Program-made: the position numbers and the translations under genes
IMG/VR virus record: IMGVR_UViG_3300045988_164982
DNA: 64,000 nt
Reading direction: 5' to 3' (one strand)
Origin: a virus
Notes under the pieces: model-generated
Told to the model about the DNA's origin: nothing
What the model saw: only the letters and a program-made list of their open reading frames with translations
Database searches by the model: none
Shown here: positions 1,762-52,870 of the stretch, one piece after another
Numbering within the stretch: position 1 is the first letter of the stretch
Layout: the number at the start of each line of letters is the position of its first letter

Positions 1762-2624
1762 TGCCTACAAGCAGTAATCTGTCAAAATATGAAAATTCCA
1801 TACAGGATGGCGAGCCAGTAGAATTTTATAAATTTACTTGTAATGGCACTGATTATCTGTACACCTCACGCAGAAAAGACTTGACCATCAATGATGAAAT
1901 CTATTATGGCGAATACATTGAGCGACAGGAGTTAAAGCCTGGAAGCAGTAACAGCTTGGTTGAAATGACAATCACTGTTTCCAAAGAGAATCCAGTGGCA
2001 AAGCTGTACCAGCAGGTGCCACCAGAAACGCCTATTAATCTAAAGATAATGCGACTTCACATGGCGGATATGAGCAAAGTAGATACTATCTTCTATGGCA
2101 GGGCAACACAGGCTTCTTTCGAGGATTCAAAGTGTCAGCTTACATTTGTTATGGAAAGCTGGCTAAAGAAAGAGCTTCCCAATGGACTTTATCAGTACAC
2201 CTGTAACAATGTTTTGTACAACCATAATTGCAAGGTAGACCCGTCCCAGTATCAGGAAATAGTATTTCTTGACAAGGACGAGGGATTGAATATTTATTCT
2301 AAGGATTTTGCCAAGCATCCAGATGGATATTATGAAAACGGGAAAATGTATTTCAATGGGCAAGTACGAATGATTGCTTCTCATAAAGGAGAAGTGTGTA
2401 CGCTAAAATATCCATTTTCCCTAAGACCTCGTAATAATATAGTTGTGTTACCAGGCTGTGATAAAACATTCAACACCTGTGTGAAGCGGTTTGGCAATGC
2501 TCTTAATTTTACAGGTTTTCCATACTGCCCACCAACAGATGCTGAAAAGAATCCTACAGGTGTAGGCACATATTGGGTAAATGGCAATATTGTTTTCCGT
2601 GATACAAATGGCTATATCCATTAA
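1761..2624 (+). CDS. phage tail protein, DUF2163 / BR0599-like C-terminal domain (GTA g13-like hub)
   Basis: 287 aa; ATGA stop/start overlap with the upstream gene; Cys-rich C-terminus CDKTFNTCVKRFGNALNFTGFPYCP resembles the BR0599 domain. Confidence 0.45.
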   Translation: MPTSSNLSKYENSIQDGEPVEFYKFTCNGTDYLYTSRRKDLTINDEIYYGEYIERQELKPGSSNSLVEMTITVSKENPVAKLYQQVPPETPINLKIMRLHMADMSKVDTIFYGRATQASFEDSKCQLTFVMESWLKKELPNGLYQYTCNNVLYNHNCKVDPSQYQEIVFLDKDEGLNIYSKDFAKHPDGYYENGKMYFNGQVRMIASHKGEVCTLKYPFSLRPRNNIVVLPGCDKTFNTCVKRFGNALNFTGFPYCPPTDAEKNPTGVGTYWVNGNIVFRDTNGYIH

Positions 2625-2635
2625 GGCGGTGAATT

Positions 2636-5600
2636 ATGGCAAGACGAAAAAATGATTCAGGCTTAGGTGCATGGGTTGGCTGGGGGCTAACCACCTTGGC
2701 ACTTTTATTTTTTAATAGACGAAGCTCGACCAGAAATAGCAGTTTCAATCAAGAACCTGCTACACTTAGCATAACCTCTACACGCATAGGTACTGTTATT
2801 CCTGTTGTGATGGGGCAATGCCTTATAAAATCCCCCCTTACCAGCTATTGGGGAGATTTTTCGAGTAGGGCATATACAGAAGATTACGGTATGTGGACTG
2901 ATGTAGATTGGACGAACATTATTATAAGTGGACTTATCCCCTTAATTGCAATCTTAGTTACGCCATCAAAGCATTTTGTTACCACAAGTAGTGGTGCTGG
3001 CACGGCAACTGATACAGCAAACGGCAATAAAATGAGAATGATTGTAATGGCCATCATATCACTCTTGCTGGCATTATTAACAGCCCTATTCACTAACCAC
3101 GGTGGCAGAACTACCATTCAGAAAGGTTTTAAGTATTACCTTGGCTATCAGCAGATATTATGCTGGGGTAGCCCTAATGCTAGACTAAGACGGATCTACA
3201 TGAACGAAAAAGAAGTGTGGTCAGGTGATGAACCAGCAAGCAATCATTTGGATGGCTCTCCGTTTACCATTCATGTAGATAATGAAAACTTATTTGGTGG
3301 TCCCGATGAAAATGGCGGTTTTGTAGGTGATATACGAGTATATTTTGGCGGAGATAACCAAGGTGCAGACCATTGGATGTCTAAGGAAATGAATGCTGAC
3401 AGTATACAGGCTGATTTGAGAGGCCTTACCTCTGCCTATAGACCATTCATTACCGTGGTTGTTCCTACCGCTTATGTCGGAAAATCAGCAACTATCCCTA
3501 CTATGTGGTATGAGATAGAGATAATTCCTGATTCTCTCGCCAAGGCTAACGGCAAAGATTACGCAAAAATTGGCGACGATGCCAACCCCGCAGAGATTAT
3601 AAAGGAAATAGTCAGCAACAATGATTGGGGATTAGCAGAATCTGCTGATTGCCTTGATATAAAAGCACTTGACAGCATGGGCGAACGCATTGCTAAAGAA
3701 CAGCTGGGGCTGTCAATTCAAATGACATCTAAGGAAACGGCAGAGAGCATTGTTGAAAATATATGCAGTCACATCAATGCCATTAGATATGCTGATTCTT
3801 CTACAGGCCTTATGGTTCATCGACTAATCAGAGATGACCAAGAAGATATGTTGCTGGTTAATACTTCTAACTGTAGTAAGATAACTTTCGTGCGACAGGA
3901 TTGGTTGAATACCATAAGTGAAATTTCTGTTTCATATACAGACAGAAGTGCCAGGTACGAAACAGGCACATTGACAGCTGATGACCCCGCCAACATAGAA
4001 ATTCTCAACGGAGTAAAGACAACAAAGTCCTATGATTTCCCTTACTTTACTACCGCAGCTAATGCGCTATACGCCGCGAAAAGAGTAGGTACAGAGCAGG
4101 GGTATCCGCTGGCAAACATCTCATTGGAGTGTGACAGGACTATGTCAACACTACGTTTAGGCGATAGGTTTGTTGTAAAATTTGCTCCATATGGCATAGC
4201 CAGCATGATTTTTAGGGCAACAAATGTTGATTTGAGTGATTTTGTTGATGGTACTGTCAAGATAGATGCCGTTGAGGATGTATTCTCCCTTGCCAAGAAC
4301 AACTTTACCTACAGTGGCAGTACCGAATGGGAACGCGACCCTGTACAGCCTAGTGAGATTCAAATATGGGGTGTTTGGGAAGAACCATATGAAATCACAC
4401 GAATGACAGAAACATTCGTAAAAATGTATGCTTGTCAGCCATCTATTGCGAATACGATATGGCATGTGTGGCGAAAGACAGCGACCGATTCCAACTTTGT
4501 TCGTTCAAACGATACAACAGCATGGACAGCGGTTGGCAAGATGGTTTATAACTACCCAGAAGATGGACTTGCCGAAGATTTGCAGGGATTTACTGTAAGA
4601 GAAGTCAACGGCATTACCAATATGGTTGAAGAAATGCTTATACCGACTTCTGCTGACATTGATGTTGCTAGGAAAGCCAATAGGATTGCTATCATAGGTG
4701 AGGAATGGATTGCGTATAGCGGTATGGTTCAACAGCCTAACGGAAATTGGAAAATACTAGGTGTTATCCGTGGCATATACGACACTGTTCCACAAAAACA
4801 TTCTGCTACCGAGCCAGTTATTTTTCTCCAAAGCGGACATTATATTAATGTAAAACGCGGCGGCTGGGTATGCAGTAAAGGACAGACAACAGATGAATAT
4901 TACTCCATTACTACAGATAGCGTTGACCAGCAGGGACAGTTAAATCCAGCATTGAATATCCATTTTGAAACAAAACAGCGTTCTTCTCGGCCAACTGTGC
5001 AAGGCAGGATTCGTATGACCGCACATATGTTGAGCGACCAATATTATGCTGATAAGGTGGCAGGTGATTTAAGCCTTACATGGGCACCTCGTGATAAGGA
5101 TTCCACTTTTACTGTAGTTACACAAAACGATGTAGCTGATTCCGTTTCTGGCACAGCATTTGAAAAGCCGAATGGACTTGATTATGTTGTTGAGGTATTT
5201 GCTGGTGGGCTGAGTATCCGTAAGGATACAGTGACAAACGAAGCATATTATTATTCGTGGGCTGACAGGTGCAAAGATGGCGGTGACATTGGAGCGGAAA
5301 CAACCATACAGATGTATTGCATTTTTGGTGGGCTTGAAAGCTGGCAACGACAGGAGAGAACATTCTTATGGATTGTCCCTACCATAGTAGGATTTGCTTA
5401 CGATGAAACAGGGGCAATTGGACTGATTCACGATTTAGAGAATAATGGTCAGATTGTTCTTCCTGCTGGGCAATACAATAATCCACAATATATTGATTAT
5501 GATGATAGCCCTGTTGTATTGCTGGGATTCCCTGTGGTAAATCCATCGACTCCAGGTGCAATGTTGGCTGCCGATGGCACATATTGGTTGCCAAATGGTA

Positions 5601-5752: not shown

Positions 5753-8700
5753 ATGGGCACAAAAATAACAAAAAATCTATCAATCCCTATAGTAGATTCA
5801 CAAGACCATGTTGCCAAGGAGTCTATCAACGATGCCTTGCTTGTCATTGATAAAAATGCATTGCATGTGAACCACGCTCTAAACAAGTCCCATTGGGACT
5901 ATTGGAAAGCAAATACTCAATATGCATTGCATGACATATTCAGAGCACCAGGTATTCCATCGTGGGGCTTCTTTGAGGTCATTCAAGCTGGAACTAGCAA
6001 TACCGATGCAGAAAACTACCCTGTCGCATACGGAGAGGGCGATAAAGTAACCAATGGTACTTGTGAGTTAATTCTCCGCAGACTTAACACTACAGATACT
6101 CTTGATTTCTACAATAATACTTTGATTACATCAGATTCCGTGGTAGCGCGTAAGGATGTGCCAAAGTCAACAAGCGTAGTCGAATTGCATGGGGGTGGCA
6201 AAACAACATACCCTATCACATCAGGAAATTCTGTAAGAATCTATGCCAGCAAATTCGGAGGCATTACGGAGCTTCTGTGTGGGTATTACGATGGTGGAAC
6301 CAAAGGACAGGCTCGCCTTTATTATCGTAATATGAGTGGAAGCGGTGCTGATTGGTCAGATTGGGATAGAATTGCTTTTACCGGTGATGCTGCTACTATT
6401 TCTGCATGGGCAAGTGGCACTTCTTATAATGCCAATGATGTTGTCAGACTCAACAATAAGCTGTGGGTTTGTAAAACAGCCAACAACGACAAATCATTTA
6501 CTAAGGCCAAGTGGGTGCAGATTGATGGTTATGATGCCAATGCTCCTGATTGGGAAACAAAACACACCTATTCCAAGAATGAAGTGGTTGTCAGCGAGGG
6601 TAAGCTCTACAGAGCTACAGTCAACCATACATCTACAATTGACCTAAAAACTGATATTGCGAACTGGGAATTAATCAGCGGGGCAGATCCATTTATTCCA
6701 GACTGGGAAACTAAACATGATTATTTGAAAAATGAAATAGTTGTCAGTGAGAGAAAATTGTACAGGGCAAAGGCAAGCCATACTTCTACAACTGACTTAA
6801 AGACTGACATTGCCAATTGGGAGTATGTAGGGCACGACCCTTACATTCCTGATTGGGAAGCCAGCCATAGCTATCTAAAGGACGAAACTGTTGTTTATAA
6901 AAAGACCATTTACAGAGCACTTAGCAAGCATAAATCTTCTGCAGCATTTGCAAGCGATGTTACTAAATGGGAGAAATTAGGCGGTGCTGGGGGCGTATCT
7001 CAGTGGACAACAAAGGAAAGCTATGATGTAGGCCAACTGGTTACTAATGACGGTATTCTGTATAGAGCAACTGCAAGCCACACATCTGGCACTTCCTTTT
7101 CACAGGATGCAGCAAATTGGTCGGTTGTTACAGCTGACCTTAATCACTGGGCCAAAAGCACCTATTATCCAGCAGGTATCATTGTAGAAAGTGGCAACCA
7201 GCTTTATAAGTGCAAAACTGCTCATGTATCTACCACCTCTATCATTGCTGACAATGATAAATGGACGAGAGTTACCAAACTCCCTTACATAAATGATTGG
7301 GAAGCATCTCATGACTACCAAAAAGATGATGTTGTGATAAGCGGTGGCAAAATGTATCGTGCCACTGCCAACCATAAGTCAACGACATCAATTGACAAGG
7401 ATATTGCCAATTGGGAAATGCTTATCAAAGCACCTTATATTGAGGATTGGGAGGCTAAGCACGATTATCTAAAAAATGATATTGTCGTTTATAAAAAGAC
7501 CATTTACAGAGCTAAACAGGCACACACCGCTACTGCTTCATTCTTAGATGATTCTGCAAATTGGGATAAATTAGGTGGAACAGGCAGGATTACTGCATGG
7601 ACTTCCAAAGAAAGTTACCAAGTAGGCCAGCTTGTCACTAACAACGGACTTCTTTATAAAGCAGTGAAAGACCATACTGCAAGTGCAGATTTTACTGCGG
7701 ATATTGCCAATTGGGAACTTGTTACGGCTACTGTAAATGCGTGGAGAACGGAAGTATATTATCCAGCAGGAATTATTGTTGAAAACAACAAAATCCTGTA
7801 TAAGTGTGTAACTGCACATACTTCTACCACTTCTCTTAGCGCAGATATTGACAATTGGGAGAGCATAAAAGGCGGTGCTCCTTATATCCCAGATTGGGTG
7901 ACTAAGCACGCTTACAAGGAGAATGAGATAATAGTAAGCGACTCCAAGCTGTACAGGGTAAAGACTGCACACACTTCAACAACCAGCCTTAGCGATGACA
8001 TTGCTAACTGGGAATATGTAGGGCATGACCCAAATATTCCAGATTGGGAAATCAAACATGACTACAAGCAGAATGAAGTAGTTGTTGTTAATGGTGCTAT
8101 TGCTAGGGCACTGTCTGCCCATAAATCATCAAGCACACAGTTCAGTGATGATGTTGCCAACTGGGAGTTTGTCAGCAGTTCCAGCGGAATGGCAAAGTGG
8201 ACTGTAAAGACTTTGTACCAAAAAGGACAGCTTGTGTCAGCTTGGAACAATGCCTATTATGCAAAATCTACCCATGTATCAGGCAATGATTTCTTCACAG
8301 ATTATGCTAACTGGGAGTTCTTCTGTTCTCATATCAATGGCTGGGTAGGAGCTGGTTATAATTACGAGCCTGGTATGACAGTGACTATGGACGGCAAAAT
8401 ATATTCCTGCACACTGAAACATACTGCTACTTCTTCATGGGAGGACGACAAAACCGCTAATTGGAGGCTCATAGGAGAGGCAGCACTTCTTACTGATTGG
8501 GCAACCAAGACCAGTTATGAGGTTGGCAAAGTTGTCGTAAAAGATGGTTCTATATACAGAGCCAATACCAAACATACCAGCACAACATTTTCAGCAGATA
8601 CTGACAAGTGGGAACTGCTCTTTTCCAGCATTGATACATGGAAAAAAAGCACTTACTACAAAGTAGGTGCTGTAATTACCGTCAATGGGTTGATTTATCG

Positions 8701-10306
8701 TTGTAATACCGCCCACACATCTACTACCACCATTAAGGCAGATATGGCGAATTGGGACATCATAGGCGGTGGTAATCCATACGCACCAGACTGGGCAACA
8801 AAACAGGTATATAAGGCTAACGATATTGTCGTAAAAGACAGCAAGTTGTACCGTGCTAAATTAGACCATACTGCTGGCACAAGTTTTGCTGATGATAAAG
8901 ACAAGTGGGAACTTATCGGTCATGACAAAATTACCGATTGGGAACCAGAAAAAAAATATGCCGTGGCAGATTTGTGTGTGTACAAATACAAACTGTATCG
9001 CTGTAAGCTGGCACACACAAGCTCTAGTACCATGAGTGATACCGAGCTTTCCAAATATTGGGAGGAAGTCAGCAAATCACAAAGTATCCCACCTTGGCAG
9101 ACAAAAACCATATACAATGTCGGAGATATTGTATATGAAGATTTTTCTATATATAGATGTTATAAAGCACATACTAGCGGAACATTCATAGATGATTTGG
9201 TTAATAGTTGTTGGTATAAGCTAGACCGACGAAGTGTTATCACCACAGGTATACCAACATACTCGTTAGGCCAAGAATTGATTTACGATTCCTATACTGG
9301 ACTACGACTTTCAAGAGGATACTATAAAGCTCCCTCCACTGAAGCAGAGCATAGTTCACGCTATGACCCAGTATGCACCAGTTTGGTTGATTACGATTAT
9401 CGGAGCGGGTACATTCGTAATCATTTGTATGGAGAAACAGCTTATTGCGGAAACAAAAGGGTTTATAAATGCTCAAAAAGAGAGCCAATACCTCCAAATA
9501 CACCACATAGTATTGAATCATACAGAATAACCTACCTAGCTACTGAGCAAGTGTTTATGATGAATAAATATGACAATGATTTAAAAAGATACTATGGTGA
9601 GTTAGTAATCAAACTCCCGCAAGTTAGTGATGTGACAAAGGTATCTTTCGGTCGGTATTTTCATAAAGGCGGTGCAGTTGATAGTGCCGATATTAGTATT
9701 TATACTAGCATCGATGGAAAAAAATATAACCTTGTAAGCATTTTCCATTACCTAATGGATAATATCACTGCAAAATTTACAGCTATATGTTGCTCGTATA
9801 TAAAAATTCGGTTGTATGGTGTATATTATGCAGGAAGCTCACATAGTAGTAAGGACGGATGGAGTTTTTCATTTATAGATGTTCATGGATTATCCCCTTA
9901 TTGGACACAAATCAAAGATGAACGAATCTTAGACTATGATTCTAGTAAAACTTACGAGTCACAAGATGTTGCTGTGCTTAACCGAAAACTATATCGTTGT
10001 GCTCTTCCTGTAGACGATAGAACAGGCATGAGTTACGATTATATGACAAAAAATCCGCAGTGGGAGTCACTTATTGCAGACATTGACCATTGGACAGCTG
10101 GTACTCTTTACGCAAAAGGTAGTTCCGTCATTTATAATCATGCACTTTTTGAATGTTTGGAGTTACATACAGCGTCTTCCGACTTCAAAACTGACTTGGA
10201 AGATAAATCTCCTAAATGGGTACAGATAAGCGGTGTTGGCACAGGGGATATTGCTACAGAGGACGAAGTGTTAGCAGCTATGACTGCGGTAATTACGGAG
10301 GATTGA
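5753..10306 (+). CDS. tail fiber / receptor-binding protein with about 24 tandem CBM5/12-like (chitin-binding-type) repeats
   Basis: 1517 aa; repeated ~45-aa unit DWETKHxYxKNExVVxxxKLYRAxxxHTSTxxxxxDIANWE (W..Y..V..G.LY.A...H.S......W pattern) from about aa 200-1100; short N-terminal fiber-anchor-like region; distinct ~400-aa C-terminal domain. Confidence 0.6.
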   Translation: MGTKITKNLSIPIVDSQDHVAKESINDALLVIDKNALHVNHALNKSHWDYWKANTQYALHDIFRAPGIPSWGFFEVIQAGTSNTDAENYPVAYGEGDKVTNGTCELILRRLNTTDTLDFYNNTLITSDSVVARKDVPKSTSVVELHGGGKTTYPITSGNSVRIYASKFGGITELLCGYYDGGTKGQARLYYRNMSGSGADWSDWDRIAFTGDAATISAWASGTSYNANDVVRLNNKLWVCKTANNDKSFTKAKWVQIDGYDANAPDWETKHTYSKNEVVVSEGKLYRATVNHTSTIDLKTDIANWELISGADPFIPDWETKHDYLKNEIVVSERKLYRAKASHTSTTDLKTDIANWEYVGHDPYIPDWEASHSYLKDETVVYKKTIYRALSKHKSSAAFASDVTKWEKLGGAGGVSQWTTKESYDVGQLVTNDGILYRATASHTSGTSFSQDAANWSVVTADLNHWAKSTYYPAGIIVESGNQLYKCKTAHVSTTSIIADNDKWTRVTKLPYINDWEASHDYQKDDVVISGGKMYRATANHKSTTSIDKDIANWEMLIKAPYIEDWEAKHDYLKNDIVVYKKTIYRAKQAHTATASFLDDSANWDKLGGTGRITAWTSKESYQVGQLVTNNGLLYKAVKDHTASADFTADIANWELVTATVNAWRTEVYYPAGIIVENNKILYKCVTAHTSTTSLSADIDNWESIKGGAPYIPDWVTKHAYKENEIIVSDSKLYRVKTAHTSTTSLSDDIANWEYVGHDPNIPDWEIKHDYKQNEVVVVNGAIARALSAHKSSSTQFSDDVANWEFVSSSSGMAKWTVKTLYQKGQLVSAWNNAYYAKSTHVSGNDFFTDYANWEFFCSHINGWVGAGYNYEPGMTVTMDGKIYSCTLKHTATSSWEDDKTANWRLIGEAALLTDWATKTSYEVGKVVVKDGSIYRANTKHTSTTFSADTDKWELLFSSIDTWKKSTYYKVGAVITVNGLIYRCNTAHTSTTTIKADMANWDIIGGGNPYAPDWATKQVYKANDIVVKDSKLYRAKLDHTAGTSFADDKDKWELIGHDKITDWEPEKKYAVADLCVYKYKLYRCKLAHTSSSTMSDTELSKYWEEVSKSQSIPPWQTKTIYNVGDIVYEDFSIYRCYKAHTSGTFIDDLVNSCWYKLDRRSVITTGIPTYSLGQELIYDSYTGLRLSRGYYKAPSTEAEHSSRYDPVCTSLVDYDYRSGYIRNHLYGETAYCGNKRVYKCSKREPIPPNTPHSIESYRITYLATEQVFMMNKYDNDLKRYYGELVIKLPQVSDVTKVSFGRYFHKGGAVDSADISIYTSIDGKKYNLVSIFHYLMDNITAKFTAICCSYIKIRLYGVYYAGSSHSSKDGWSFSFIDVHGLSPYWTQIKDERILDYDSSKTYESQDVAVLNRKLYRCALPVDDRTGMSYDYMTKNPQWESLIADIDHWTAGTLYAKGSSVIYNHALFECLELHTASSDFKTDLEDKSPKWVQISGVGTGDIATEDEVLAAMTAVITED

Positions 10307-10310: not shown

Positions 10311-12308
10311 ATGGGCTTAAAAAATGGCAATAAACTTGTAACTGTAGGCGGTCTAAGAAAGGTTTACGACAGTCTTATGAAGTCGTATGGCAGTATTTTA
10401 TTTGCTGACCTGCCTATGCCATCTAAAATGACAGTAGGTAATGTCTACAACATTAAGGATAAGTTTACTACCACGGATTATTTTGTGGAGGGCGAGGGCA
10501 AGGATTGTGCGGCCGGTACAAATGTTGGAATCATCGAAGTAAAAGAAACGAATACTGAAACGGGAGAAATAATCATAAGCTACAAATACGACTTGTTTGG
10601 TGGGCCTATGAGTATGGATTCCAGTGGCTTTGTTTCACAGGGACAGTTCACAAAAGCCATTGCTGAAATATCTAATTATGTTAGGGACATAGAGTTTCAG
10701 CCTAACAATACCAACACTGTTGTCGTTACGAAAGGCAATGGCAGTTCTTCTACTTACACGCTTAATGTTGGAAAAAATGCAGATGTCATAAAAGATATAA
10801 CTATTGATACTACTTTGTCTACGGATTTAGGTCATGTAAAACATAGGCGAATAACCCGTTCTGACAACAATTCAAAAGTTCACCTGATGTGGGAGGACCC
10901 TGACGATTCGACCAATGATGCCTGGGGAGAAACAGCTGTTGTTAAGAAGAAAGGTTCATACCCTACCAACATAGAGGACGGAACTTTGGTGTTGATATGT
11001 GCCGTTCGTAATAAGTTTAAATCCACGGCATATGTCGATGAACAGGAAAGCTCCGAGCAATGGTACTATAGAGCGTTTCCTATTGCTACCAGCGGTGCGG
11101 TATCAAACAGCAATCTTAACAGATTCGATTACTGGCATTATGCTGTTTGCATAGATGAAAAAAATCCTATTGAAGCAGATTCTGTTACCTATCCACCTGG
11201 GTACGATAATTCCGATTATAAGCCACTTAGAGTCATAATGAATGTCAATGCCCAGATGGATAATAACAAATGTGACTGGGGCAGTTGGAAAAACGCACCA
11301 TTTATGCCTCGTCCATGTATGCTGAAATTTGACGGAAAGGTTGATTATTATCTTAATCCAGACGATTACACTCTGAAAGAAGATGGCAGTCCTTCCGATG
11401 TTTCTAACACATCGTATGAGGGAAATGCAATGATGGAGTTCTCTCCTGTGTTCATCAAGGTTCAGAGGGTAGCTTCCATGCTATTCATCCACTTCTGTTC
11501 GGAAAAATATGATGATGATTATGAGTGCTGGTCATGCAAAAAGGAAGATGGCACTTATGCTGACCACTACTATATGGCCATCTACGAAGCAAGTCTTATA
11601 AACGGAAAGTTCCGTTCTTTGTCTACAGGAAATGTCGCAACAACCAACATAAGCGGTGGACTAACTACCTGCATGAATTATGCAAGACAATGTGGTGAGG
11701 GTTGGAACATCGACCTGTGGAGCGATTGGGATTTACTTAGATGTCTCGGAATCCTCGTAACTAAAAGACTAAATTCACAAAAGGCCGTAGGTGCTGGTGG
11801 AACTAGCTATCATGTAGTACCAACAGGGGCAGGCAATAAAAAGGGAATGTTTTGGGGGACACTCGATTACCAAAACACATATGCAACAAAATTTTTCGGC
11901 ATAGAAAATCCGTGGGGTGATATTTATAGATACTGTGCTGGTGTCATTATGAACTCTGATTATGCCACTATTTTGATAAAGCATACATATTCTGTAGTAG
12001 ATGGTTCTACCATTAATGGTTATAACGATAGTGGTACAGGGTACATAAACACAGGATTGAAAATACCAACATCTAATGGGTATATGACAAAAATGCAGGG
12101 CAATTCACAGTGCATTACTGCACCTATGAGCATTGGTGGTTCAGATACCACACATCTCAGCGACTATATGTACAGAGGAAATACAGGTTTGCTTATAAAC
12201 GGCCCCGGTGGTTACTCGGGCTGCGGCCTGTTCTGTTGGGACTCGTATTGCTCTCCGTCGTCCTCGGCCGTGGACTGTGGCGCCGCCTTGTCCTTTAAAA
12301 ATTTCTGA
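10311..12308 (+). CDS. tail fiber protein, DGR target gene with C-terminal variable region
   Basis: 665-aa ORF; the last ~30 codons (GYSGCGLFCWDSYCSPSSSAVDCGAAL) are the VR copy of the downstream TR. Confidence 0.7.
   Translation: MGLKNGNKLVTVGGLRKVYDSLMKSYGSILFADLPMPSKMTVGNVYNIKDKFTTTDYFVEGEGKDCAAGTNVGIIEVKETNTETGEIIISYKYDLFGGPMSMDSSGFVSQGQFTKAIAEISNYVRDIEFQPNNTNTVVVTKGNGSSSTYTLNVGKNADVIKDITIDTTLSTDLGHVKHRRITRSDNNSKVHLMWEDPDDSTNDAWGETAVVKKKGSYPTNIEDGTLVLICAVRNKFKSTAYVDEQESSEQWYYRAFPIATSGAVSNSNLNRFDYWHYAVCIDEKNPIEADSVTYPPGYDNSDYKPLRVIMNVNAQMDNNKCDWGSWKNAPFMPRPCMLKFDGKVDYYLNPDDYTLKEDGSPSDVSNTSYEGNAMMEFSPVFIKVQRVASMLFIHFCSEKYDDDYECWSCKKEDGTYADHYYMAIYEASLINGKFRSLSTGNVATTNISGGLTTCMNYARQCGEGWNIDLWSDWDLLRCLGILVTKRLNSQKAVGAGGTSYHVVPTGAGNKKGMFWGTLDYQNTYATKFFGIENPWGDIYRYCAGVIMNSDYATILIKHTYSVVDGSTINGYNDSGTGYINTGLKIPTSNGYMTKMQGNSQCITAPMSIGGSDTTHLSDYMYRGNTGLLINGPGGYSGCGLFCWDSYCSPSSSAVDCGAALSFKNF
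12206..12293 (+). repeat. DGR variable region (VR)
   Basis: 84-nt gapless alignment to the TR at +204 bp; all 17 mismatches fall at TR adenines. Confidence 0.85.
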
Positions 12309-12342
12309 TGGGAGGGGTGCAGGGGAGGATTCCCCTCCCCGC
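12274..12342 (+). promoter_or_regulatory. GC-rich IMH-like VR 3' end (GGCGCCGCCTTG) plus downstream GC hairpin GGGGAGG-ATTCC-CCTCCCC
   Basis: the GC-rich VR end matches the TR except at A positions; a perfect 7-bp GC stem lies at 12322-12340, analogous to the Bordetella DGR IMH and hairpin. Confidence 0.5.
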
Positions 12343-12409
12343 TCGCTTTCCCAGGGAATAGTAACATTTTAGAAATTAAATATATGGGTATATACAGACG
12401 AGGCGGCTA

Positions 12410-12497
12410 CGGTGGTAACTCGAACTACGGCCTGTTCTATTGGAACTCGAATAACTCTCCGTCGAACTCGAACGTGAACTATGGCGCCGCCTTGTAA
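12410..12497 (+). repeat. DGR template repeat (TR)
   Basis: non-coding copy of the VR with 21 adenines, AAC/AAT (Asn) codons in the VR frame, ending in TAA. Confidence 0.85.
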
Positions 12498-12628
12498 CTT
12501 GAACACAATATAAATAATGTCGGTATATATCCACACTCCATACGGAGAGAAAATTAGGCATACAGAAAGCGGATTAGTAAGAGTAAAATCATAATATCCG
12601 TAGACCTTTGTTCAAAGGATTTTAACAT

Positions 12629-13714
12629 ATGAAAACTATAAATAATCTATTCAATGAAATAATAAGTGAATCTAATTTGAGGATGGCTCTACACAACGCA
12701 GCCAAGGGAAAAAGAGATAAACGCAGTGTGAAAAGTGCTCTTTTTAACGAAGATGAAGTTGTGACACAGCTTCATTATGAACTAAAAAACAATTTATGGA
12801 GGCCAAAGCGAATACACAACATAAAAATAATCAACGATGGTGTGCAGAAAAAGAAACGTGAAATAGTTTGCCCAGATTTTATTAAAGACCAGGTTGTTCA
12901 TCATGCCATAATGCAGGTATGTAAACCTTACTTTATCAATAGATTCTACAAACATTCTTATGCAAGTGTGCCCAAATACGGAGGGCTTGAAAATATGGTA
13001 AAATATATTAGGCACGCAATGAATGACAAGAAAAACACGAAATATTTCGTCAAACTAGATATAAAGCAATTTTTCAATTCCATAAAGCCATCAACAGTCT
13101 TTCATGTGCTTAGAAGAATTATCAGGGATAAGAAAACTTTAGCCCTTTTCGCACGTATTCTGCGTGGCAATGTTATTATCCATCCAGAACTAGGTGTTAT
13201 AAAGCGAGGGTGTCCGATAGGGCTATATACATCACAATGGTTTGCCAACATATTATTGACACCGCTTGACAATCTTATTAAGTCATTTGGAAAGAAAATA
13301 GCGCCGTATTATGTAAGGTATAATGACGATATACTCATATTTTCACCTAATAAGCGAAAACTAAAAAAGGTTGTAGATGGGGTTGTAAACCACCTTGAAC
13401 TAATAGGACTTTCTTTGAAACACAAAGCACAAATTCACATGACATCAAAGAATAAAATAACATATGTTGGTTCTTTGATAACATATTATAAGATTACAAT
13501 GAAGCCTAAAACATTCGTAAAGACAAGGCGATGTTTGAATCACATAAGGAAGAAAATGAACAATCATCAGAAAATAACTTCTTATGATGCAAAAAGAGCA
13601 TTTGCCTATATATCACGCTGTAGAATTTACGATATGCATGATTTTATAGCTGATTTGCAATTGCCTTTAGATAATTTCAAAAAGACTATCAGTTATGCAG
13701 ACAAAAGGAAGTGA
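12629..13714 (+). CDS. DGR reverse transcriptase
   Basis: 361 aa; RT motifs LDIKQFF (motif A), IGLYTSQ (DGR-diagnostic IGxxxSQ in place of QGxxxSP), YVRYNDDILIF (YxDD); size and position downstream of the TR. Confidence 0.85.
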   Translation: MKTINNLFNEIISESNLRMALHNAAKGKRDKRSVKSALFNEDEVVTQLHYELKNNLWRPKRIHNIKIINDGVQKKKREIVCPDFIKDQVVHHAIMQVCKPYFINRFYKHSYASVPKYGGLENMVKYIRHAMNDKKNTKYFVKLDIKQFFNSIKPSTVFHVLRRIIRDKKTLALFARILRGNVIIHPELGVIKRGCPIGLYTSQWFANILLTPLDNLIKSFGKKIAPYYVRYNDDILIFSPNKRKLKKVVDGVVNHLELIGLSLKHKAQIHMTSKNKITYVGSLITYYKITMKPKTFVKTRRCLNHIRKKMNNHQKITSYDAKRAFAYISRCRIYDMHDFIADLQLPLDNFKKTISYADKRK

Positions 13715-13720: not shown

Positions 13721-13978
13721 ATGGGTAGCTGGGTAACAGCACATTCCAATGTAAAGCCAGAGATATTTCAAAAAGCAGGTAATGATAAATATCTTCTTCA
13801 TCAGAATATTGTAGAAAGTACAGATGAAGATGGCAACAAATCCTACACGTATGATGAAAGAGTAATTTCGTGCGACGAGTATTTCATTTTAAAATCTTTG
13901 CAAGATGTGTCATTTAGGCGAGAAGCAGAGATTATAGATGAATACACTGAAAAACTTATTGAAGAGGGGGTGATTTAG
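13721..13978 (+). CDS. hypothetical acidic protein (XkdW position in a PBSX-like module)
   Basis: 85-aa ORF with RBS; lies between the RT and an XkdX-like gene. Confidence 0.4.
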   Translation: MGSWVTAHSNVKPEIFQKAGNDKYLLHQNIVESTDEDGNKSYTYDERVISCDEYFILKSLQDVSFRREAEIIDEYTEKLIEEGVI

Positions 13979-28439: not shown

Positions 28440-28735
28440 TAAAGTAACTAAAATAGAATATTCACATCGAAAGATTGCTGACCAACAGCATGACCAACAA
28501 AGATGTTTATTATAATATAAAAAAGTAAAATCGTATAAACACAAAATGTAGATGAATAAAGGCTTGGTAAACTTTAGTATACAAATCCACAATTACATCC
28601 GATAATTTATACGAATGGGAGAGATTATTCATAAACCCAGAGTTTACTAAGCCTGACAAGGTATATAAACATCTTTGACCAACATTTGACTAACAAAAAA
28701 CGCCCTGAGTGATTCAGAGCGTTTTTTTGTTAGCT
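28440..28735. other. candidate attP region with TGACCAACA direct repeats and a bidirectional terminator hairpin
   Basis: AT-rich ORF-free stretch abutting the 3' end of int; TGACCAACA at 28479, 28494 and 28674 (plus TGACTAACA); hairpin AACGCCCTGAgtgatTCAGAGCGTT flanked by an A-run and a T-run at 28706-28735. Confidence 0.35.
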
Positions 28736-29779
28736 TTGCGGTAAAAAATCATTTAACATTGCAGCAACTTCTTTGTCGTGCTGTTTATACACATGCCCAT
28801 ATGTATTCAGCGTAATGCTAGGGTTAGAATGTCCAAGTCTGCTAGCGATAACATTCACAGGGACACCCATTTTGATTAAGAACGATGCGTGAGAGTGCCT
28901 TAATCCATGAATGGTTATCACATGAACGCCAGCACGCTCACACAGCCTTTTTAAGCGGGTACGTATGGTTCTGACATCTAACTCTTGAAATAGGTATTCA
29001 GTAGGCTTAGACAAGTTCTCAACGTATTCCTCGATTATCTTCATACAAGAAGATGGCATTGTTATGGTACGAACGCTATAACTTGATTTAGTCGTACTAA
29101 TCTTATGTCCTATTGTATCATATTGTTTGTTAATAGTGATAGTATTTTTTTGAAAATTTAAATCGTTGATAGTAAGCCCCAGAAATTCTCCTATACGCAT
29201 ACCAGACCAATACAAAGTATAGAACACTACTTTGTCGTAATCATTAGCTATTTTGCTGGCAACCAGTTCCCATTCATCTTGCTCTAAAAAGTTGTTATTG
29301 TCTTTGTCTGCTGCAGGTAATAGTGGCTCTATACTGGTAAGCTCGCTTGAAAGGTTGTAATATTTTACACCAAAACCTATAAAGGCCTTAAAAGAAACGA
29401 GAATTAGTTTCATAGAGGCGGGGGACAGTGGAAGTTCCATAACATAATTCTGCCATTTTCGTACAGTGAACGGAGTAATGCTGCTGATAGGCAATTCGCC
29501 TATTTTTGGCAATATATACATATTAATGTTCTTGCGAACACTTCTGTAAGAATTTGCCTTGTAGTGTAATTTATAGTCAGCCAAGTATTCATCAGCCATT
29601 GCACTAAGAGTAATTGTAGGTTTGCTTTGAGATTGAGCACGAAAATTTCTTTCATATTCCAGGGCATCCTTTTTCCTTTCAAATCCTCGCTTTGTGGTAG
29701 ACCGCGAATGCCCGCACCAGTCGCGATAACGGAATTTGCAGTACCATGATTTTTGTTCTTTATCATAGTAGACAGACAT
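28730..29779 (-). CDS. int: tyrosine site-specific integrase
   Basis: C-terminal HGLRHSHASFLIKMGVPVNVIASRLGHSNPSITLNTYGHV catalytic region (R..H..R..Y). Confidence 0.85.
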   Translation of the reverse strand: MSVYYDKEQKSWYCKFRYRDWCGHSRSTTKRGFERKKDALEYERNFRAQSQSKPTITLSAMADEYLADYKLHYKANSYRSVRKNINMYILPKIGELPISSITPFTVRKWQNYVMELPLSPASMKLILVSFKAFIGFGVKYYNLSSELTSIEPLLPAADKDNNNFLEQDEWELVASKIANDYDKVVFYTLYWSGMRIGEFLGLTINDLNFQKNTITINKQYDTIGHKISTTKSSYSVRTITMPSSCMKIIEEYVENLSKPTEYLFQELDVRTIRTRLKRLCERAGVHVITIHGLRHSHASFLIKMGVPVNVIASRLGHSNPSITLNTYGHVYKQHDKEVAAMLNDFLPQS

Positions 29780-30470: not shown

Positions 30471-30977
30471 TTATTTTATTACTTTAGCCTCTTTCAAACC
30501 AGTGAATAAAGCCATTTTTATCAGTTCTTTATTCTCACGTGGCATAAGGGCAAGCCTTTTTGATAACATGACAGAATCGCATTTCTTTAATACAGCTAAA
30601 GTTTTAGGGTCATCTTGAAAAATATTTTCTAAGATACCTTTGGAAACTTCCTTTACTAAAGTTGGGGTATGTGCTACAAAACGTACAGCAACAACACGTG
30701 AATCCAAGCCACATTCCTCAGCCAATTCTTCTGTAGATAAGTCGAACGCTTTAGCAAGGGCTTTGAACTTATCTACAGGGATAGATTTCTTCCCCAGTTC
30801 CATTTGATTAACCGAGCTGCGGGACATGTAACCTATCTTTAATGCCAGCTCTTCCTGTGTCATGCCAGCCATTTTCCTAAGATACTTTATGCGCTTGCCT
30901 ATAGCTTTATAGTCGATTTCATCCATCCCACCAATAGGAGGTAAGGAATCAGTTTGATATGCGCCCATAAAAACCAC
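30471..30977 (-). CDS. cI-like repressor, HTH_XRE family
   Basis: HTH MAGMTQEELALKIGYMSRSSVNQMELGK; divergent from the cro-like gene; RBS GAGAGGTGG. Confidence 0.65.
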   Translation of the reverse strand: MVFMGAYQTDSLPPIGGMDEIDYKAIGKRIKYLRKMAGMTQEELALKIGYMSRSSVNQMELGKKSIPVDKFKALAKAFDLSTEELAEECGLDSRVVAVRFVAHTPTLVKEVSKGILENIFQDDPKTLAVLKKCDSVMLSKRLALMPRENKELIKMALFTGLKEAKVIK

Positions 30978-31932: not shown

Positions 31933-33897
31933 ATGACAGATAGGGGGGCTTACAAAATGAAATTTCAAAAATTAATATTGGAAAATTTTCGAGGGATGAA
32001 AAAGCTGGAGGTGGATTTTGCTGGTGCCTCTTGTAATGTATATGGTAGAAACGCCAGTGGAAAGACAACGATAGCCAATGCTATCTGCTGGTTGCTTACT
32101 GGCTCAGCCATGACAGGAGAAAAGGATTTTTCTCCTAAGACGGCAGGCAGTCACAATCTCCACCACAAGGCAGAGCTGACAATCCAGAAGGATGACGGCA
32201 GCATAGTAGTCCTGTCTAAAGACTATTATGAAAAGTGGACCAAAAAAAAAGGAGCTAGTACAGCTGAACTGACAGGACACACTACAGACTTCGCTATTGA
32301 TGGAGTACCACAGAAAGAGAAAGACTATATAAAAGCTGTAGAGACTCTCTGTGGTGGCAGTACGGACAAGATAAAGGAAATATCTATACTAGGGTATTTC
32401 AGCGAATCCATAAAGGCTGACGACCGCAGGAGGGTATTGCTGGAGGTTTGCGGTGATGTGTCTGATGAGGAAATCATGAAAGACGACAGACTACAGGGAT
32501 TGGAAAAATTCCTGCGAGTGCCTGGCACCGAGAATCAGCAGTATTCCATTGATGATTATCGGGCCATCGCTCTTAAACAGCGTTCCAAGCTAAAAAAGGA
32601 GCTTGATACACTGCCTGAGCGTATTGATGAACAGAATAACAGCTTGCCTGAGGCTGTAGATGAAAAGGCTTTACAGACGGAGTTAGAAGAGTTACAGAGG
32701 CTTAGAAACGAGCTGAGCAATACAGATAAAGTTGTCGCCAAGGAAGCGGCCATCAGAGGTCTGAGGGCTGGCATAGAAAAAGAAAAGGTTCAATTCACAC
32801 AGGAACAGGTCGAGGCCAATTTAGAAGCTCAGAAAAAAATAGATAGGCTGATGGCCAAGAAAAGCGAATACAGCGAACGAAAAAGTAATCTAAGTTTTGA
32901 GGTTATACAGAAACAGCAGAATGTCAGCCAGATGGCTGATAGGCGTCAGAGCCTGCTGAATGAGTGGCAGGAAGTGGCCTCTTTGAAATGGCGGGATGGA
33001 GATAATATATGTCCCTGCTGTGGTCAGGAACTTCCAGCTGATCAGCTGGAGACGAAAAAGGCAGCGTTTATGGACAATATAAAGAACCGCAAAGAGGAAA
33101 TCCGCAAGCAGGGGCAGACCTGTAGCGATGCCTTGATTCAGCAGTTAAAGGCTGAATTAGAGCTACAGCAGGGTGAGGTTGACAGACTGGACAAGGAAAT
33201 AGCTATTCTTGAAAAAGAAAAAGCCCTGATATATGGACAGATGAAAGAACCCGCACCTTTTGAGCATACCAAAAGATACAAAGAGGCTATGGAGAGAATC
33301 CGCCAGCTGGAGAGCGAGAGCACAGACAATATAGCTGTTGCCAGGGAACAGCTTGCAGATGTAGATAAACGCATCCGAGAGGTAAATGAGGGGCTGGCTA
33401 CAAAGGCTATGACTGAAAAAATCAAAGCTCGTATTACGGAGCTGGAGAAAATCCAGCAGGCCAAGGCTTCCCAGTTGGAGCAGGTAGAGCATGGCCTTTA
33501 TCTCTGTGATGAGTTCATACGCATTAAGGTGGCTATGGTGACAGAGAAAATAAACAGCAGATTCAAAACTATCAGCTTCCAGCTCTTCAAGGAGCAGGTA
33601 AATGGCGGTATCAAGGAATGCTGTGAGGCACTGATACCATCACCAGATGGCACAATGGTTGAGTACAAGGCCGCCAATACAGCTGCCAAGGTAAATGCAG
33701 GACTGGAAATTATAGGAGTCCTCTCAGAGCACTATGGCATGAATATGCCAATTATCATGGACCAGGCCGAAAGTGTAATCAAGCTTGTTAATATCAATCA
33801 GCAGTTAATCAGGCTGATTGTGGCAGACCAGCCATTAGAAATAGAGGTTGTAGATACCTTAGCAGGTATAACAGATACAAAGAGAAGGAGTGCATAA
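31933..33897 (+). CDS. Rad50/SbcC-like (AAA_23) coiled-coil ATPase of the recombination module
   Basis: N-terminal LILENFRGMKKL...GRNASGKTT Walker A; long coiled-coil middle; adjacent to RecT. Confidence 0.55.
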   Translation: MTDRGAYKMKFQKLILENFRGMKKLEVDFAGASCNVYGRNASGKTTIANAICWLLTGSAMTGEKDFSPKTAGSHNLHHKAELTIQKDDGSIVVLSKDYYEKWTKKKGASTAELTGHTTDFAIDGVPQKEKDYIKAVETLCGGSTDKIKEISILGYFSESIKADDRRRVLLEVCGDVSDEEIMKDDRLQGLEKFLRVPGTENQQYSIDDYRAIALKQRSKLKKELDTLPERIDEQNNSLPEAVDEKALQTELEELQRLRNELSNTDKVVAKEAAIRGLRAGIEKEKVQFTQEQVEANLEAQKKIDRLMAKKSEYSERKSNLSFEVIQKQQNVSQMADRRQSLLNEWQEVASLKWRDGDNICPCCGQELPADQLETKKAAFMDNIKNRKEEIRKQGQTCSDALIQQLKAELELQQGEVDRLDKEIAILEKEKALIYGQMKEPAPFEHTKRYKEAMERIRQLESESTDNIAVAREQLADVDKRIREVNEGLATKAMTEKIKARITELEKIQQAKASQLEQVEHGLYLCDEFIRIKVAMVTEKINSRFKTISFQLFKEQVNGGIKECCEALIPSPDGTMVEYKAANTAAKVNAGLEIIGVLSEHYGMNMPIIMDQAESVIKLVNINQQLIRLIVADQPLEIEVVDTLAGITDTKRRSA

Positions 33898-33899
33898 AT

Positions 33900-34685
33900 A
33901 TGTCAAACGAAATTATAAATACCGAACCCAAGGAGATGGAGATTACCCGTCCAGGCTTTGAAAGCGAGAAGGGCTTTGCTCTCCTCCAGCGCATGGCGAA
34001 GATGTTCAATCTTTCCACCATTGTTCCTGAGACATTCAGAGGTGAAAAGAACATTGGCAACTGTGCAATAGCTATCAATATGGCCCAGAGAATGGGAGCT
34101 GATCCTTTGATGGTTATGCAGAATATGTACATTGTCTACGGCAATCCAGCCTGGAGCAGTAAATTCATGATAGCCACCTTTAACAGCTGTGGCCGTTATG
34201 AGGCTATCAAATACAAGGTTACTGGAGAACGTAGTACAGATACTCAGGGCGTAATTGCATGGACTAGAGAGAAATCCTCCGGTGATATTATCGAGGGGCC
34301 GGAGGTAACAATAGGCATTGCCAAGGCTGAGGGCTGGTATAACAAGTCTGGCAGTAAATGGAAAACCATGCCGGATCAGTTGCTTAGATACAGAGCTGCC
34401 AGCTGGCTGATTCGTACTACAGCCCCAGAAATCAGCATGGGATTGATGACTAGTGATGAAATAGAGGATATTGGGCCAGAGATGGAGCACGTTGTTGACC
34501 TTGATGAAGCAATGAGCAGTGTTGAGAATGATATGGCTGCTCTGCCAGAAGCTAAGCCTATTGTTGAGGCACCTGTGGCAGAGTTTAAGATGGAAGCTCC
34601 CAAGAGCAAGACTACAGCAAAGGCAACAAAGCCGGCAAAGACAGCAGAAGCACCCGCTGCTGAAATGGAAGAGCCTGGCTTCTAA
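33900..34685 (+). CDS. recT: RecT-family single-strand annealing protein
   Basis: central RecT-like region (GNCAIAINMAQRMGADPLMVMQNMYIVYG...); acidic, low-complexity C-terminus. Confidence 0.55.
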   Translation: MSNEIINTEPKEMEITRPGFESEKGFALLQRMAKMFNLSTIVPETFRGEKNIGNCAIAINMAQRMGADPLMVMQNMYIVYGNPAWSSKFMIATFNSCGRYEAIKYKVTGERSTDTQGVIAWTREKSSGDIIEGPEVTIGIAKAEGWYNKSGSKWKTMPDQLLRYRAASWLIRTTAPEISMGLMTSDEIEDIGPEMEHVVDLDEAMSSVENDMAALPEAKPIVEAPVAEFKMEAPKSKTTAKATKPAKTAEAPAAEMEEPGF

Positions 34686-35384
34686 TTGGATATTAGGGTA
34701 ATTGGTTCAGGGAGTGCTGGTAACTGCTATCTCATAAATGATGGCAAAACCGCACTCCTACTGGACGCAGGTATAGCATTTAGCGAGATTCAGAAGGCTA
34801 TGGACTTTGACACAAGTCATATCAGAGGGTGCCTGATAACTCATCAACATGGGGACCATGCTAAGGCAGGGAAGGACATGGCCAAAAGGGGAATCAAGGT
34901 TTATGCTAACGTAAATACAGCTGTAGCAGTAGGCAAGGGGGCCAAGGTGCTGGAGCCCCTTACTAGCTATGGTATAGATACTATGACTATTCTACCTTTT
35001 GAGGTGGTGCATGATGTCCCGTGCTTCGGGTACAGGATAGACAGCTTGGTAACAGGCGAGAGACTGGTGTACATAACAGATGCTGCGGGTTTTAGGTTCT
35101 CTATCAAAGGAACTACCCATCTGCTGGTAGAGTGCAATCACAGTCATGAGAAGCTGATTGAGAGAGTCAGAACCAATGAGATGAATCCTGTGCTGGGGAA
35201 TCGAGTAGCTAAAACTCATATGAGTTTTGAGACACTGACCAGGTATCTGTCTGATGGGCGTATTCAGGTGGACAAACTAAAAAAGGTAATGCTGATACAT
35301 CTATCAGATGGAAACAGTGATGCCGGAATGTTCCGTGAAGCCATACAGGAGCTTTTGCCAGAGGCTGAGGTTACTGTGTGGTAG
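34686..35384 (+). CDS. metallo-beta-lactamase-fold hydrolase (candidate nuclease partner)
   Basis: HQHGDH motif; TTG start overlapping the recT stop. Confidence 0.55.
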   Translation: MDIRVIGSGSAGNCYLINDGKTALLLDAGIAFSEIQKAMDFDTSHIRGCLITHQHGDHAKAGKDMAKRGIKVYANVNTAVAVGKGAKVLEPLTSYGIDTMTILPFEVVHDVPCFGYRIDSLVTGERLVYITDAAGFRFSIKGTTHLLVECNHSHEKLIERVRTNEMNPVLGNRVAKTHMSFETLTRYLSDGRIQVDKLKKVMLIHLSDGNSDAGMFREAIQELLPEAEVTVW

Positions 35385-35661
35385 AGAAAGGGGGCCGGCA
35401 GAGATGGGAGAAAATGGTAGCTTTCAAGGGCTGTGGATTCCAAGGGAAATTTCGCTTCTACCAGTCAGCATAACGCAAAAGGTTCTGCATGGATAAGAAG
35501 TTTGTGGCTATCTGCATGGAAGTTAAGTTCCAAAAGCGAGCAAAAGAGTTCACACTAGACGATTACACCACATTTGTCAACAACTTTGACGGCTACATTG
35601 CTGAGGTTCAGGAAGAAGCTATCAAGCGTATGAGTGCGTGAGTCGAACTGGGGGAATTGAA

Positions 35662-36075
35662 ATGAGAAAGAATTGTATGGCGGAAGTTGCTAAGGCTCTC
35701 GGTTTAGAGCTGGAAGAAGTGTTTCGTATTGATGGTGATGAGCATTATTTTAGGCTTACAGATACAGGCTTAGGAATGTCGATGTGTTCAGAAAACAAAA
35801 ATTGGTTTGTTGCTCCTATCAATGCACTAAACGGATTGCTACTTGGTGAAAATGAGATTATTAAGCTGCCATGGAGGCCGCAGGAAGATGAGAAATATTA
35901 TGTTCCATTTATTGCTACCAAGCCTATAAATATGTATGACGAACATTACTGGCTGAACGAGGACATCGATATGAAACGTTATCGTATGGGGCTGGTATGT
36001 AAGACTAGAGAAGAAGCTACTGCTATGACAAAGAAAATGTTAGCAGTAGCAAAGGAGGGTAAAAATAATGGCTAA
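35662..36075 (+). CDS. paralog family member 5
   Basis: MAEVAKALGLELEEVFRI ... IIKLPWRPQEDEKYYVP ... GLVCKTREEATAMTKKML. Confidence 0.55.
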   Translation: MRKNCMAEVAKALGLELEEVFRIDGDEHYFRLTDTGLGMSMCSENKNWFVAPINALNGLLLGENEIIKLPWRPQEDEKYYVPFIATKPINMYDEHYWLNEDIDMKRYRMGLVCKTREEATAMTKKMLAVAKEGKNNG

Positions 36076-36481
36076 TCACATAGCGGAAGTAGCCCGGATG
36101 TTGGGCGTAGAGATAGGAGAGATATTTAAGATTGCTGATGATACTCATGACGATTGCCAGAGATACCATCGATTCACAAAGAACGCTGGTATTGAAATAT
36201 CAGATGATGGTATTGAATGGAAAACGGCCGGTACAGTGATATTGAAATTTCTCCTGATGGGGAATGTTAGAATTGTCAAACTGCCGTGGAAGCCTAGGGA
36301 AAATGAGAGGTATTACTATCCACTTCCTAGCGACAACGACCTGTGGGGAGGTTCGACTTGGACAGATAGTAACTACGATAATATGAGACTTAATCGTGGT
36401 CTTGTCTTAAAGACAAGAGATGAAGCTGTCGCGGTAGCCAAGAAAATGCTGACAGTGATGCAGGAACAGGCGGTTGAGTAA
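36068..36481 (+). CDS. paralog family member 6
   Basis: IAEVARMLGVEIGEIFKI ... IVKLPWKPRENERYYYP ... GLVLKTRDEAVAVAKKML. Confidence 0.55.
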   Translation: MANHIAEVARMLGVEIGEIFKIADDTHDDCQRYHRFTKNAGIEISDDGIEWKTAGTVILKFLLMGNVRIVKLPWKPRENERYYYPLPSDNDLWGGSTWTDSNYDNMRLNRGLVLKTRDEAVAVAKKMLTVMQEQAVE

Positions 36482-37155: not shown

Positions 37156-37200
37156 AATAAAAAAGAACAGTTTGGTAAATGAAAGGATTGATACTGATAT

Positions 37201-52775: not shown

Positions 52776-52870
52776 AATGGTACACTCCTTTTACAGTAAA
52801 GAATATTGATGTATGGTACATCTCATAGGGCATTAATACTGTGTACTAGTGCCCTATAGGACAAACCAGA

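Follow-up and report, generated by a model that had tools for sequence, protein, structure and literature searches.

An apparently active diversity-generating retroelement with no accessory gene found, in the tail module of a human-gut temperate phage or prophage

The paradigm of the diversity-generating retroelements (DGRs) is the Bordetella phage BPP-1 cassette, which is arranged as mtd-avd-TR-brt, namely a target gene, the accessory gene avd, a template repeat (TR) and the gene for a reverse transcriptase (RT). Architecture A1 accounts for 75 of 372 surveyed DGRs, a whole lineage is without avd, and Avd-independent homing has been discussed (Wu et al., 2018; PMC5758913). Structured RNAs termed RT-18 and RT-4 were found near RT genes and left unassigned, RT-10 alone being tied to DGRs (Weinberg et al., 2017; PMC5737381), and the published survey of DGR RNAs covered Avd-containing elements only. 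DGRs that act on the tail proteins of Firmicute gut phages, accessory-free ones included, are already well documented, and the element described here adds little new biology in that respect; for Faecalibacterium phages, variation of the variable repeat (VR) was shown at the population level (PMC11792537). Here, a 64,000-nt stretch of viral DNA (IMG/VR record IMGVR_UViG_3300045988_164982, hereafter the window) was analysed, in which positions 10311-13714 almost certainly hold an active, accessory-gene-free "target-TR-RT" DGR of Architecture A1, carried by a temperate phage or prophage of the human gut within its tail module. Features lie on the + strand unless stated otherwise.

The element is organized around an adenine-specific repeat pair. 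The VR (12200-12291) is a 92-nt repeat with 82% identity to the TR (12404-12495) and occupies codons 630-660 of the 665-codon target gene, while the TR is non-coding, contains 22 adenines, of which 20 are mutagenic positions, and lies 112 nt downstream of the VR and 133 nt upstream of the RT start. An initial annotation of this DNA had proposed a gapless 84-nt match between 12210-12293 and 12414-12497 with 17 mismatches, 17/17 at TR adenines, within a target, TR and RT order on one strand; re-alignment agrees with the former and the latter is seen as well. The probability that 17 mismatches would all fall on the 21 adenines of 84 positions is 2.3e-14 (hypergeometric), and chance is also about 2e-14 for the full 92-nt repeat, in which 18 of 19 mismatches are at TR adenines. 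The pair proposed earlier is real, but its proper extent is 12200-12291 and 12404-12495, and the 10-nt 5' extension adds an A mismatch at 12205 together with a T-to-C mismatch at 12204, so that the absence of non-A mismatches holds over the 84 nt but not over the whole repeat. Similarly, the 17 of 21 adenines listed as substituted over the 84 nt all differ, but the last two are not products of mutagenesis: positions 12292-12293 read CC in the VR and AA in the TR in all 15 related copies (see below), and because it is invariant across these copies, the TAA (TR)/TCC (VR) pair at the repeat end is a fixed difference. The mutable set comprises 20 adenines (VR sites 12205-12277), 16 of which are changed in the window, in 12 codons (632, 635, 637, 638, 642, 644, 646, 647, 651, 653, 655 and 656) that read AAY eight times and TAY four times in the TR. 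In the VR frame the TR reads GNSNYGLFYWNSNNSPSNSNVNYGAAL*, which bears out the earlier remark that it is rich in AAC and AAT codons. When each A of the TR is replaced by N, the resulting pattern occurs nowhere in the 64-kb window but at the VR and the TR, and not at all in shuffles; no further VR was found in the window by this pattern.

Natural variation was followed in 15 copies, namely the window and 14 others that were chosen independently of the VR, by RT relatedness, by exact RT-protein identity and, for one, by membership in the target cluster. These copies are assemblies from gut metagenomes, not reads, and carry 13 distinct VRs; one of them, ERZ28620964 scaffold_79 from a gut metagenome (SAMN03283290), matches the window at 100% identity throughout the 1.2 kb of the comparison and is evidently where the window comes from. 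A search of viral contigs with the A-to-N pattern of the TR is biased to VRs with A-only changes and was not relied on, and the exact 3' half of the TR gave no match in genome contigs and a single metagenome-contig locus, which ends before the VR. Among the 15 copies, the VR sites opposite TR adenines vary at 20 of 20 positions with a mean of 1.67 bits; the non-A sites of the VR vary at 4 of 72 positions (0.026 bits), the flanks show 0.018 bits, and none of the 92 TR positions varies. Set against the window, eight copies taken from further samples carry changes at 11-16 of the 20 A-sites and 0-1 changes over the remaining positions, about 1,100 in number, and therefore the VR changes far faster than its background. 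Confinement of the variation to the TR adenines, which the initial annotation had proposed to look for in reads, is in this way seen on assemblies. At the protein level, 278 sequences make up the 90%-identity cluster of the target, and in 15 members of that cluster hypervariability is confined to 12 codons, which are exactly the TR codons with an adenine. These observations support an element that is currently or very recently active.

The four variable non-A sites of the VR (12204, 12234, 12236 and 12276, opposite TR 12408, 12438, 12440 and 12480) are all thymines directly beside a TR adenine in TAY codons, an arrangement with a chance probability of about 1.5e-4; it could stem from misincorporation by the RT next to adenines or from selection for a wider repertoire at the TAY codons. 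The mismatch at 12204 does not refute a DGR, because 13 of the 15 copies keep the TR base there and non-A sites vary no more than the flanks. At the 5' end of the repeat, codon 630 (12198-12199 in the window) reads AAC in part of the copies, whereas others have GGC as in the TR, which suggests that cDNA integration does not always reach to the same point on the 5' side; polymorphism is also seen just upstream, in codons 628 and 629, for which the TR has no homologous sequence.

An alternative is that the DGR is a relic, in which the VR differences are frozen and the copies owe their diversity to past events or to phage lineages having recombined. Each sample is represented in the assemblies by a single consensus VR, in which heterogeneity within a sample is not visible, and the window VR does carry a non-TR base at 12204, which a relic would accommodate. 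However, the RT open reading frame (ORF) is intact and its exact protein is found on at least 22 contigs, the TR has stayed invariant, there are 13 distinct VRs among 15 copies, and the eight copies mentioned above match the window at essentially all non-VR positions of 1.2 kb while differing from it at 11-16 of the 20 A-sites, hence a relic is very improbable.

The 361-aa RT (12629-13714) matches Pfam RVT_1 (6.5e-20) and PHROG 1423 "Reverse transcriptase" (4e-67), and the ORF contains both IGLYTSQ and YVRYNDD. DGR RTs carry [I/L/V]GxxxSQ where group II and retron RTs carry QGxxxSP. Residues 6-306 of the window RT align to the 328-aa RT of PDB 8ub7 (8ub7_A), which we take to be the Bordetella bRT from its sequence and a matching cryo-EM preprint; in this alignment PIGLYTSQWFAN of the window RT stands opposite PIGSLTSQLFAN of 8ub7, and PIGLYTSQ is aligned to PIGSLTSQ, where group II RTs have PQGGNLSP. 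Judged by its sequence, the ORF is a DGR-type RT. It belongs to a 90%-identity cluster of 202 sequences. A wider family was assembled from 159 loci with RT relatives (30-40% identical), drawn from GTDB genomes and IMG/VR and scanned with a simple TR/VR detector. An adenine-biased repeat pair is present in 118 of the 159 loci, with the same VR-TR-RT layout; TR adenines account for 1663 of the 1757 mismatches in these pairs (94.6%), VR and TR are separated by a median of 133 nt and TR and RT by a median of 130 nt, and [IL]GxxxSQ occurs in 106 of 108 RT relatives that stand beside a TR/VR pair. The relatives are mostly metagenome-assembled genomes of Clostridia, Bacilli and Melainabacteria, along with viral contigs from gut and rumen. 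A plain duplication beside a group II intron or retron-type RT, with tail-tip variation arising from positive selection and recombination, is scarcely credible. On its side are the NCBIfam matches of the RT, the best of which are models of group II introns and retrons (they fall far short of their cut-offs and no DGR-named model is among them, so that these matches are uninformative), and PDB RTs of group II and retron type, whose scores are slightly higher than that of the 8ub7 RT. Against it, the motif is IGxxxSQ and not QGxxxSP, no RNA of a group II intron or retron is detected here by Rfam, the adenine-specific mismatches run in one direction while the non-coding copy stays invariant, and 118 related RT loci share the pattern. 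A second 361-aa ORF (52871-53956, - strand) was considered as a second RT and proved unrelated on checking.

The target gene (10311-12308) encodes a 665-aa tail-module protein with the VR in its C-terminal domain, and residues 277-663 match PHROG 5302 "tail protein" (E 8e-61). An AlphaFold (AF2) model of residues 277-665, built from 94 homologues, reaches a predicted local distance difference test score (pLDDT) of 96.5, and its top Foldseek match in the PDB is TaqVP (5vf4; E 1e-8), followed by formylglycine-generating enzyme (FGE), Mtd and TvpA. The C-terminal domain hence models as the C-type-lectin fold of DGR variable proteins, and in the model the VR encodes the last strands of the C-type-lectin-like domain. 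By its gene position and fold, the target would be the receptor-binding tip. The initial annotation had proposed to look for a C-type-lectin or Ig-like fold, the former of which the structure prediction gives, and had called the downstream ORF an RT on the same two motifs, with which the RVT_1 and PHROG profile matches agree. Its interpretation as a DGR is supported as well, and in favour of it stand the RT motif, the A-specific pair, the C-type-lectin target and the A-confined variation with an invariant TR.

There is no ORF between VR and TR. Pfam scans of ORFs of at least 50 aa in 1-30 kb and of 70-200-aa ORFs in 30-64 kb gave no match to Avd/23S_rRNA_IVP (E up to 1e-3 or 1e-2), the latter being the Pfam family that we take to be that of Avd, a four-helix-bundle protein. 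A very divergent Avd could escape such scans, Avd proteins being poorly conserved. As no Avd was found, the Avd-needing mechanism of BPP-1 is not transferable as it stands.

Candidates for flanking signals can be recognized at and near the repeat ends. Both VR and TR end in GGCGCCGCC-TTGT and then diverge at once (TCC vs. TAA). In the VR, this GC-rich end (12279-12291), read from the sequence and invariant in the 15 copies, is a candidate for an element like the initiation of mutagenic homing (IMH) site, which may set directionality and the 3' site of cDNA integration; its analogue is the IMH/(GC)14 element of BPP-1 (PMC3240598). About 30 nt 3' of the VR, a DNA fold and a hairpin scan revealed a GC-rich inverted repeat with a 7-bp stem (GGGGAGG-ATTCC-CCTCCCC; 12322-12340), a candidate target-site hairpin or cruciform. 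Published target-site hairpins have stems of 7-10 bp, lie 4-34 bp from the VR and have a GRNA loop consensus (PMC3240598). Of the 118 related DGRs, 37 have a GC-rich stem of at least 7 bp on the 3' side of the VR, no more than 70 nt away, and 0 have one on the 3' side of the TR, and the hairpins of the relatives are of the GGGGG...CCCCC type with a TTCC loop. The hairpin was also considered as a terminator, which was rejected as it is without a T-run and was not called as one. No consensus promoter was found upstream of the TR.

Between TR and RT, the relatives share a structured spacer RNA, in which a helix P0 joins bases on either side of the TR 3' end to the 3' end of the spacer, a hairpin P1 is followed by an A-run, and helices P2 and P3 enclose an invariant UAGUA. 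In a MAFFT alignment of the relatives' spacers, 85% of cells pair, vs. 36-50% when the partners are slid, and the covariation score is 0.50, vs. at most 0.11 when slid, with none of 500 shuffles reaching 0.50. A covariance model of the spacer RNA matched 148 of 157 loci of relatives, once each, on the RT strand and abutting the RT start, and gave no other matches in 1.4 Mb. Compared with RT-18 (RF03021; gathering score 41.3 bits), the relatives' spacers score above the gathering score in 11 of 16 loci, and then in 4 of 4, at 44-70 bits, while one spacer variant among the relatives is RT-4 (RF03025) by Rfam. In about 150 related DGRs, the RT-18/RT-4 RNA always lies between the TR and a DGR-type RT, without avd. 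Examples of such spacers are L105:2115-2253, L007:4859-5003 and L113:2212-2348. The literature searched held no paper pairing "RT-18" with "diversity-generating".

The window spacer appears to be a divergent RT-18 relative. Model R2, which was built without this phage, gives a sole match in the window, at 12485-12631 (+ strand) with 21.4 bits and an E of about 0.017 by rough calibration; model R1, which had the window in its seed, gives 40.7 bits on the window spacer. P0 (12490-12496 with 12611-12617) overlaps the TR 3' end, and five of its seven pairs form in the window; P1 (12536-12539 with 12544-12547), followed by an A-run, and P3 (12569-12574 with 12596-12601), enclosing the invariant AGUA at 12576-12579, both form in the single-sequence fold, whose z-score is not significant, and P2 is poor in the window spacer. 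Rfam found no match on the window spacer, neither in 12100-12800 (E up to 1) nor in 12470-12640 (E up to 10).

We infer that the spacer RNA primes cDNA synthesis. A joint reading, to which we give slightly less than even credence, is that the Avd-less DGRs of this clade replace the protein cofactor by a spacer RNA of the RT-18/RT-4 class. With such an RNA cofactor, P0 would be the cis-priming duplex, an analogue of the TR:Sp duplex of BPP-1, the RT would be scaffolded by the P1 hairpin, together with the A-run after it, and by the UAGUA-bearing loop of P3, and the window spacer would be a divergent subtype of the RT-18/RT-4 RNA; the rare T-to-C and T-to-G changes beside adenines would be a by-product of the RT active site.

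The anatomy, the fold, the RT family membership and the adenine-confined variation between otherwise identical copies are what the analysis shows, onto which the DGR paradigm can be projected as follows. The TR (12404-12495) would be transcribed together with the downstream structured spacer RNA, and the RT would copy the TR into cDNA, misincorporating opposite the 20 template adenines. By analogy with BPP-1, the cDNA would then replace the VR (12200-12291) at the 3' end of the gene for the 665-aa tail protein, under the direction of the GC-rich 3' end common to both repeats and of the hairpin beyond the VR, whereas the TR would never be altered, as is seen in the population data. Randomization of the 12 codons (8 AAY, 4 TAY) could yield about 1e12 DNA and about 7e11 peptide variants, with the variable residues on the putative ligand-binding face of the C-type-lectin-fold domain, and the variants would presumably retarget the phage to changing host-surface receptors.

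Several points weigh against an active, accessory-free DGR that diversifies a receptor-binding tip. cDNA synthesis, homing and receptor binding are steps that we infer here, as are the roles of the spacer RNA, the GC-rich end and the hairpin. Non-adenine changes do exist in the VR, at the four thymines named above, and neither Avd, which the BPP-1 mechanism needs, nor any other accessory gene was found in the window scans. The window hairpin fits the published stem length and distance, but its ATTCC loop is unlike the GRNA consensus, and for the spacer there are the weak R2 match (E about 0.017) and the Rfam miss. The 1517-aa fibre encoded directly upstream, rather than the DGR target, could be the primary receptor-binding protein. 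Finally, a Firmicute host is likely but not proven.

The surroundings of the element are those of a tail module. Upstream of the target lie two large tail proteins, phrog_1101 and the tail-fibre-like protein of 1517 aa (phrog_9851; 5753-10306), the latter of which contains many tandem repeats of about 45-55 aa (W..K..Y..G..V...G.LYRA...HTS); in the gene tables of the relatives, weak CBM_5_12 carbohydrate-binding matches are listed for this fibre. After the TR-RT insert follow a small PHROG-20201 ORF, XkdX, a holin-like ORF and an Amidase_2 endolysin. The first of these, an acidic 85-aa ORF right after the RT (13721-13978), is conserved across the clade: half of the relatives have a chaperone for tail-fibre assembly (Phage_tail_APC) at this place, and the others a PHROG 20201 member. 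The ORF was considered as a new accessory gene and rejected on the strength of that Phage_tail_APC chaperone; it would probably act as a chaperone of the fibre, parted from the fibre gene by the TR-RT insert. XkdX and the Amidase_2 lysin point to a Firmicute host, as do the nearest cultured relatives, which infect Butyrivibrio, Lactobacillus, Bacillus and Faecalibacterium.

Further downstream, a tyrosine integrase (Phage_integrase, 5e-27; 28730-29779, - strand), an HTH_3 repressor-like ORF (30471-30977, - strand) and replication-type genes (31933-39484), among them an SSB by Pfam and, by eye only, RecT-like, metallo-hydrolase and other genes, were identified; this integrase, repressor and SSB set indicates a temperate element. 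Related copies lie on contigs of 325-395 kb and are therefore integrated prophages. No tRNAs were found in the window. Four paralogous ORFs of about 130-148 aa (25437-25883, 25859-26248, 26498-26896 and 35638-36075) share the pattern M..EVAK.LGVEL.E.F.I ... KLPWKP...YY.P ... KT.EEA, and none has a Pfam match. A 406-aa TnpB-like protein (45838-47058, - strand; OrfB_IS605 2e-13, Cas12f1-like TNB domain 7e-19) is encoded in a mobile-element region, and at about 52300-59300, mostly on the - strand, there is a cluster of ArdA antirestriction, RadC-like JAB domain, DUF3846, GGACT/AIG2-like and NikA-like/DUF6290 genes. Gene content of this ArdA/RadC-like kind typifies conjugative elements more than phages, and the window may for this reason span two mobile elements.

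The locus offers a clean natural case of targeted hypermutation, in that copies of one gut prophage, from many people, have the same sequence around the VR and yet are unlike one another at as many as 16 of the 20 programmed positions, and it is a good candidate for the study of phage host-range evolution in the gut. The TR-RT cassette is compact (about 1.5 kb) and no Avd was found with it, which suggests a possible use in engineered mutagenesis. The RT-18 and RT-4 "orphan" motifs of Rfam would gain a concrete, testable function, and with it a handle on cDNA priming in Avd-independent DGRs.

Compared with known systems, the window element shares with the DGR of BPP-1 the adenine-specific transfer from TR to VR, the location of the VR at the 3' terminus of a tail gene whose product has the C-type-lectin fold, and an IGxxxSQ RT, about 300 residues of which align to 8ub7 (the presumed bRT). 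The GC-rich 3' ends of the VR and TR also have counterparts in BPP-1, as do the candidate hairpin beyond the VR, likewise GC-rich, and the putative structured RNA that separates TR and RT. In contrast to BPP-1, the window cassette is without avd and has a VR-TR gap of only 112 nt, its repeat is 92 nt with 20 adenines vs. 134 nt, its hairpin loop is not GRNA, and its RT is distant (E 7e-13), as is its target, which is about 10% identical to Mtd in the structural alignment. The spacer RNAs differ too, that of the window being apparently of RT-18 type and that of BPP-1 reportedly of RT-10 type (PMC5737381). With Rfam RT-18 (RF03021) and RT-4 (RF03025), the window spacer shares the position, the P1 and P3 helices and the AGUA, but unlike RT-18 the window copy is missed by Rfam and reaches 21 bits with the independent clade model. 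TaqVP of Thermus aquaticus (PDB 5vf4) is the best match of the C-terminal 389 aa of the target (probability 1.0, TM-score 0.44) and represents the same C-type-lectin/FGE-like fold family, yet sequence identity is 11-14% and TaqVP is a bacterial protein rather than a phage tail protein. Architecture A1 has the same gene order on one strand and likewise no Avd, HRDC, MSL or CH1 gene (PMC5758913); the window element is assigned to this class by layout, and it and its 90% clusters are known from metagenomes only.

The nearest phages in GenBank are the Butyrivibrio phages Idris and Arawn, Lactobacillus phage LBR48 and Faecalibacterium phages (Lagaffe, Epona and others). A megablast of the cassette against GenBank phages gave no nucleotide-level match, and between these cultured Firmicute phages and the window the RT is about 31-32% identical over its full length and the target about 29%. 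The GenBank record of Idris, a cultured rumen phage (locus L175; MN882554.2 13359-19411), lists a "putative reverse transcriptase" and hypothetical proteins only and leaves the DGR unannotated. Idris has its VR at 1992-2102, its TR at 2234-2344 and its RT at 2501-3646 of that locus, and it resembles the window in its layout of VR, TR, RT, small ORFs and endolysin, with 17 of 17 mismatches at adenines.

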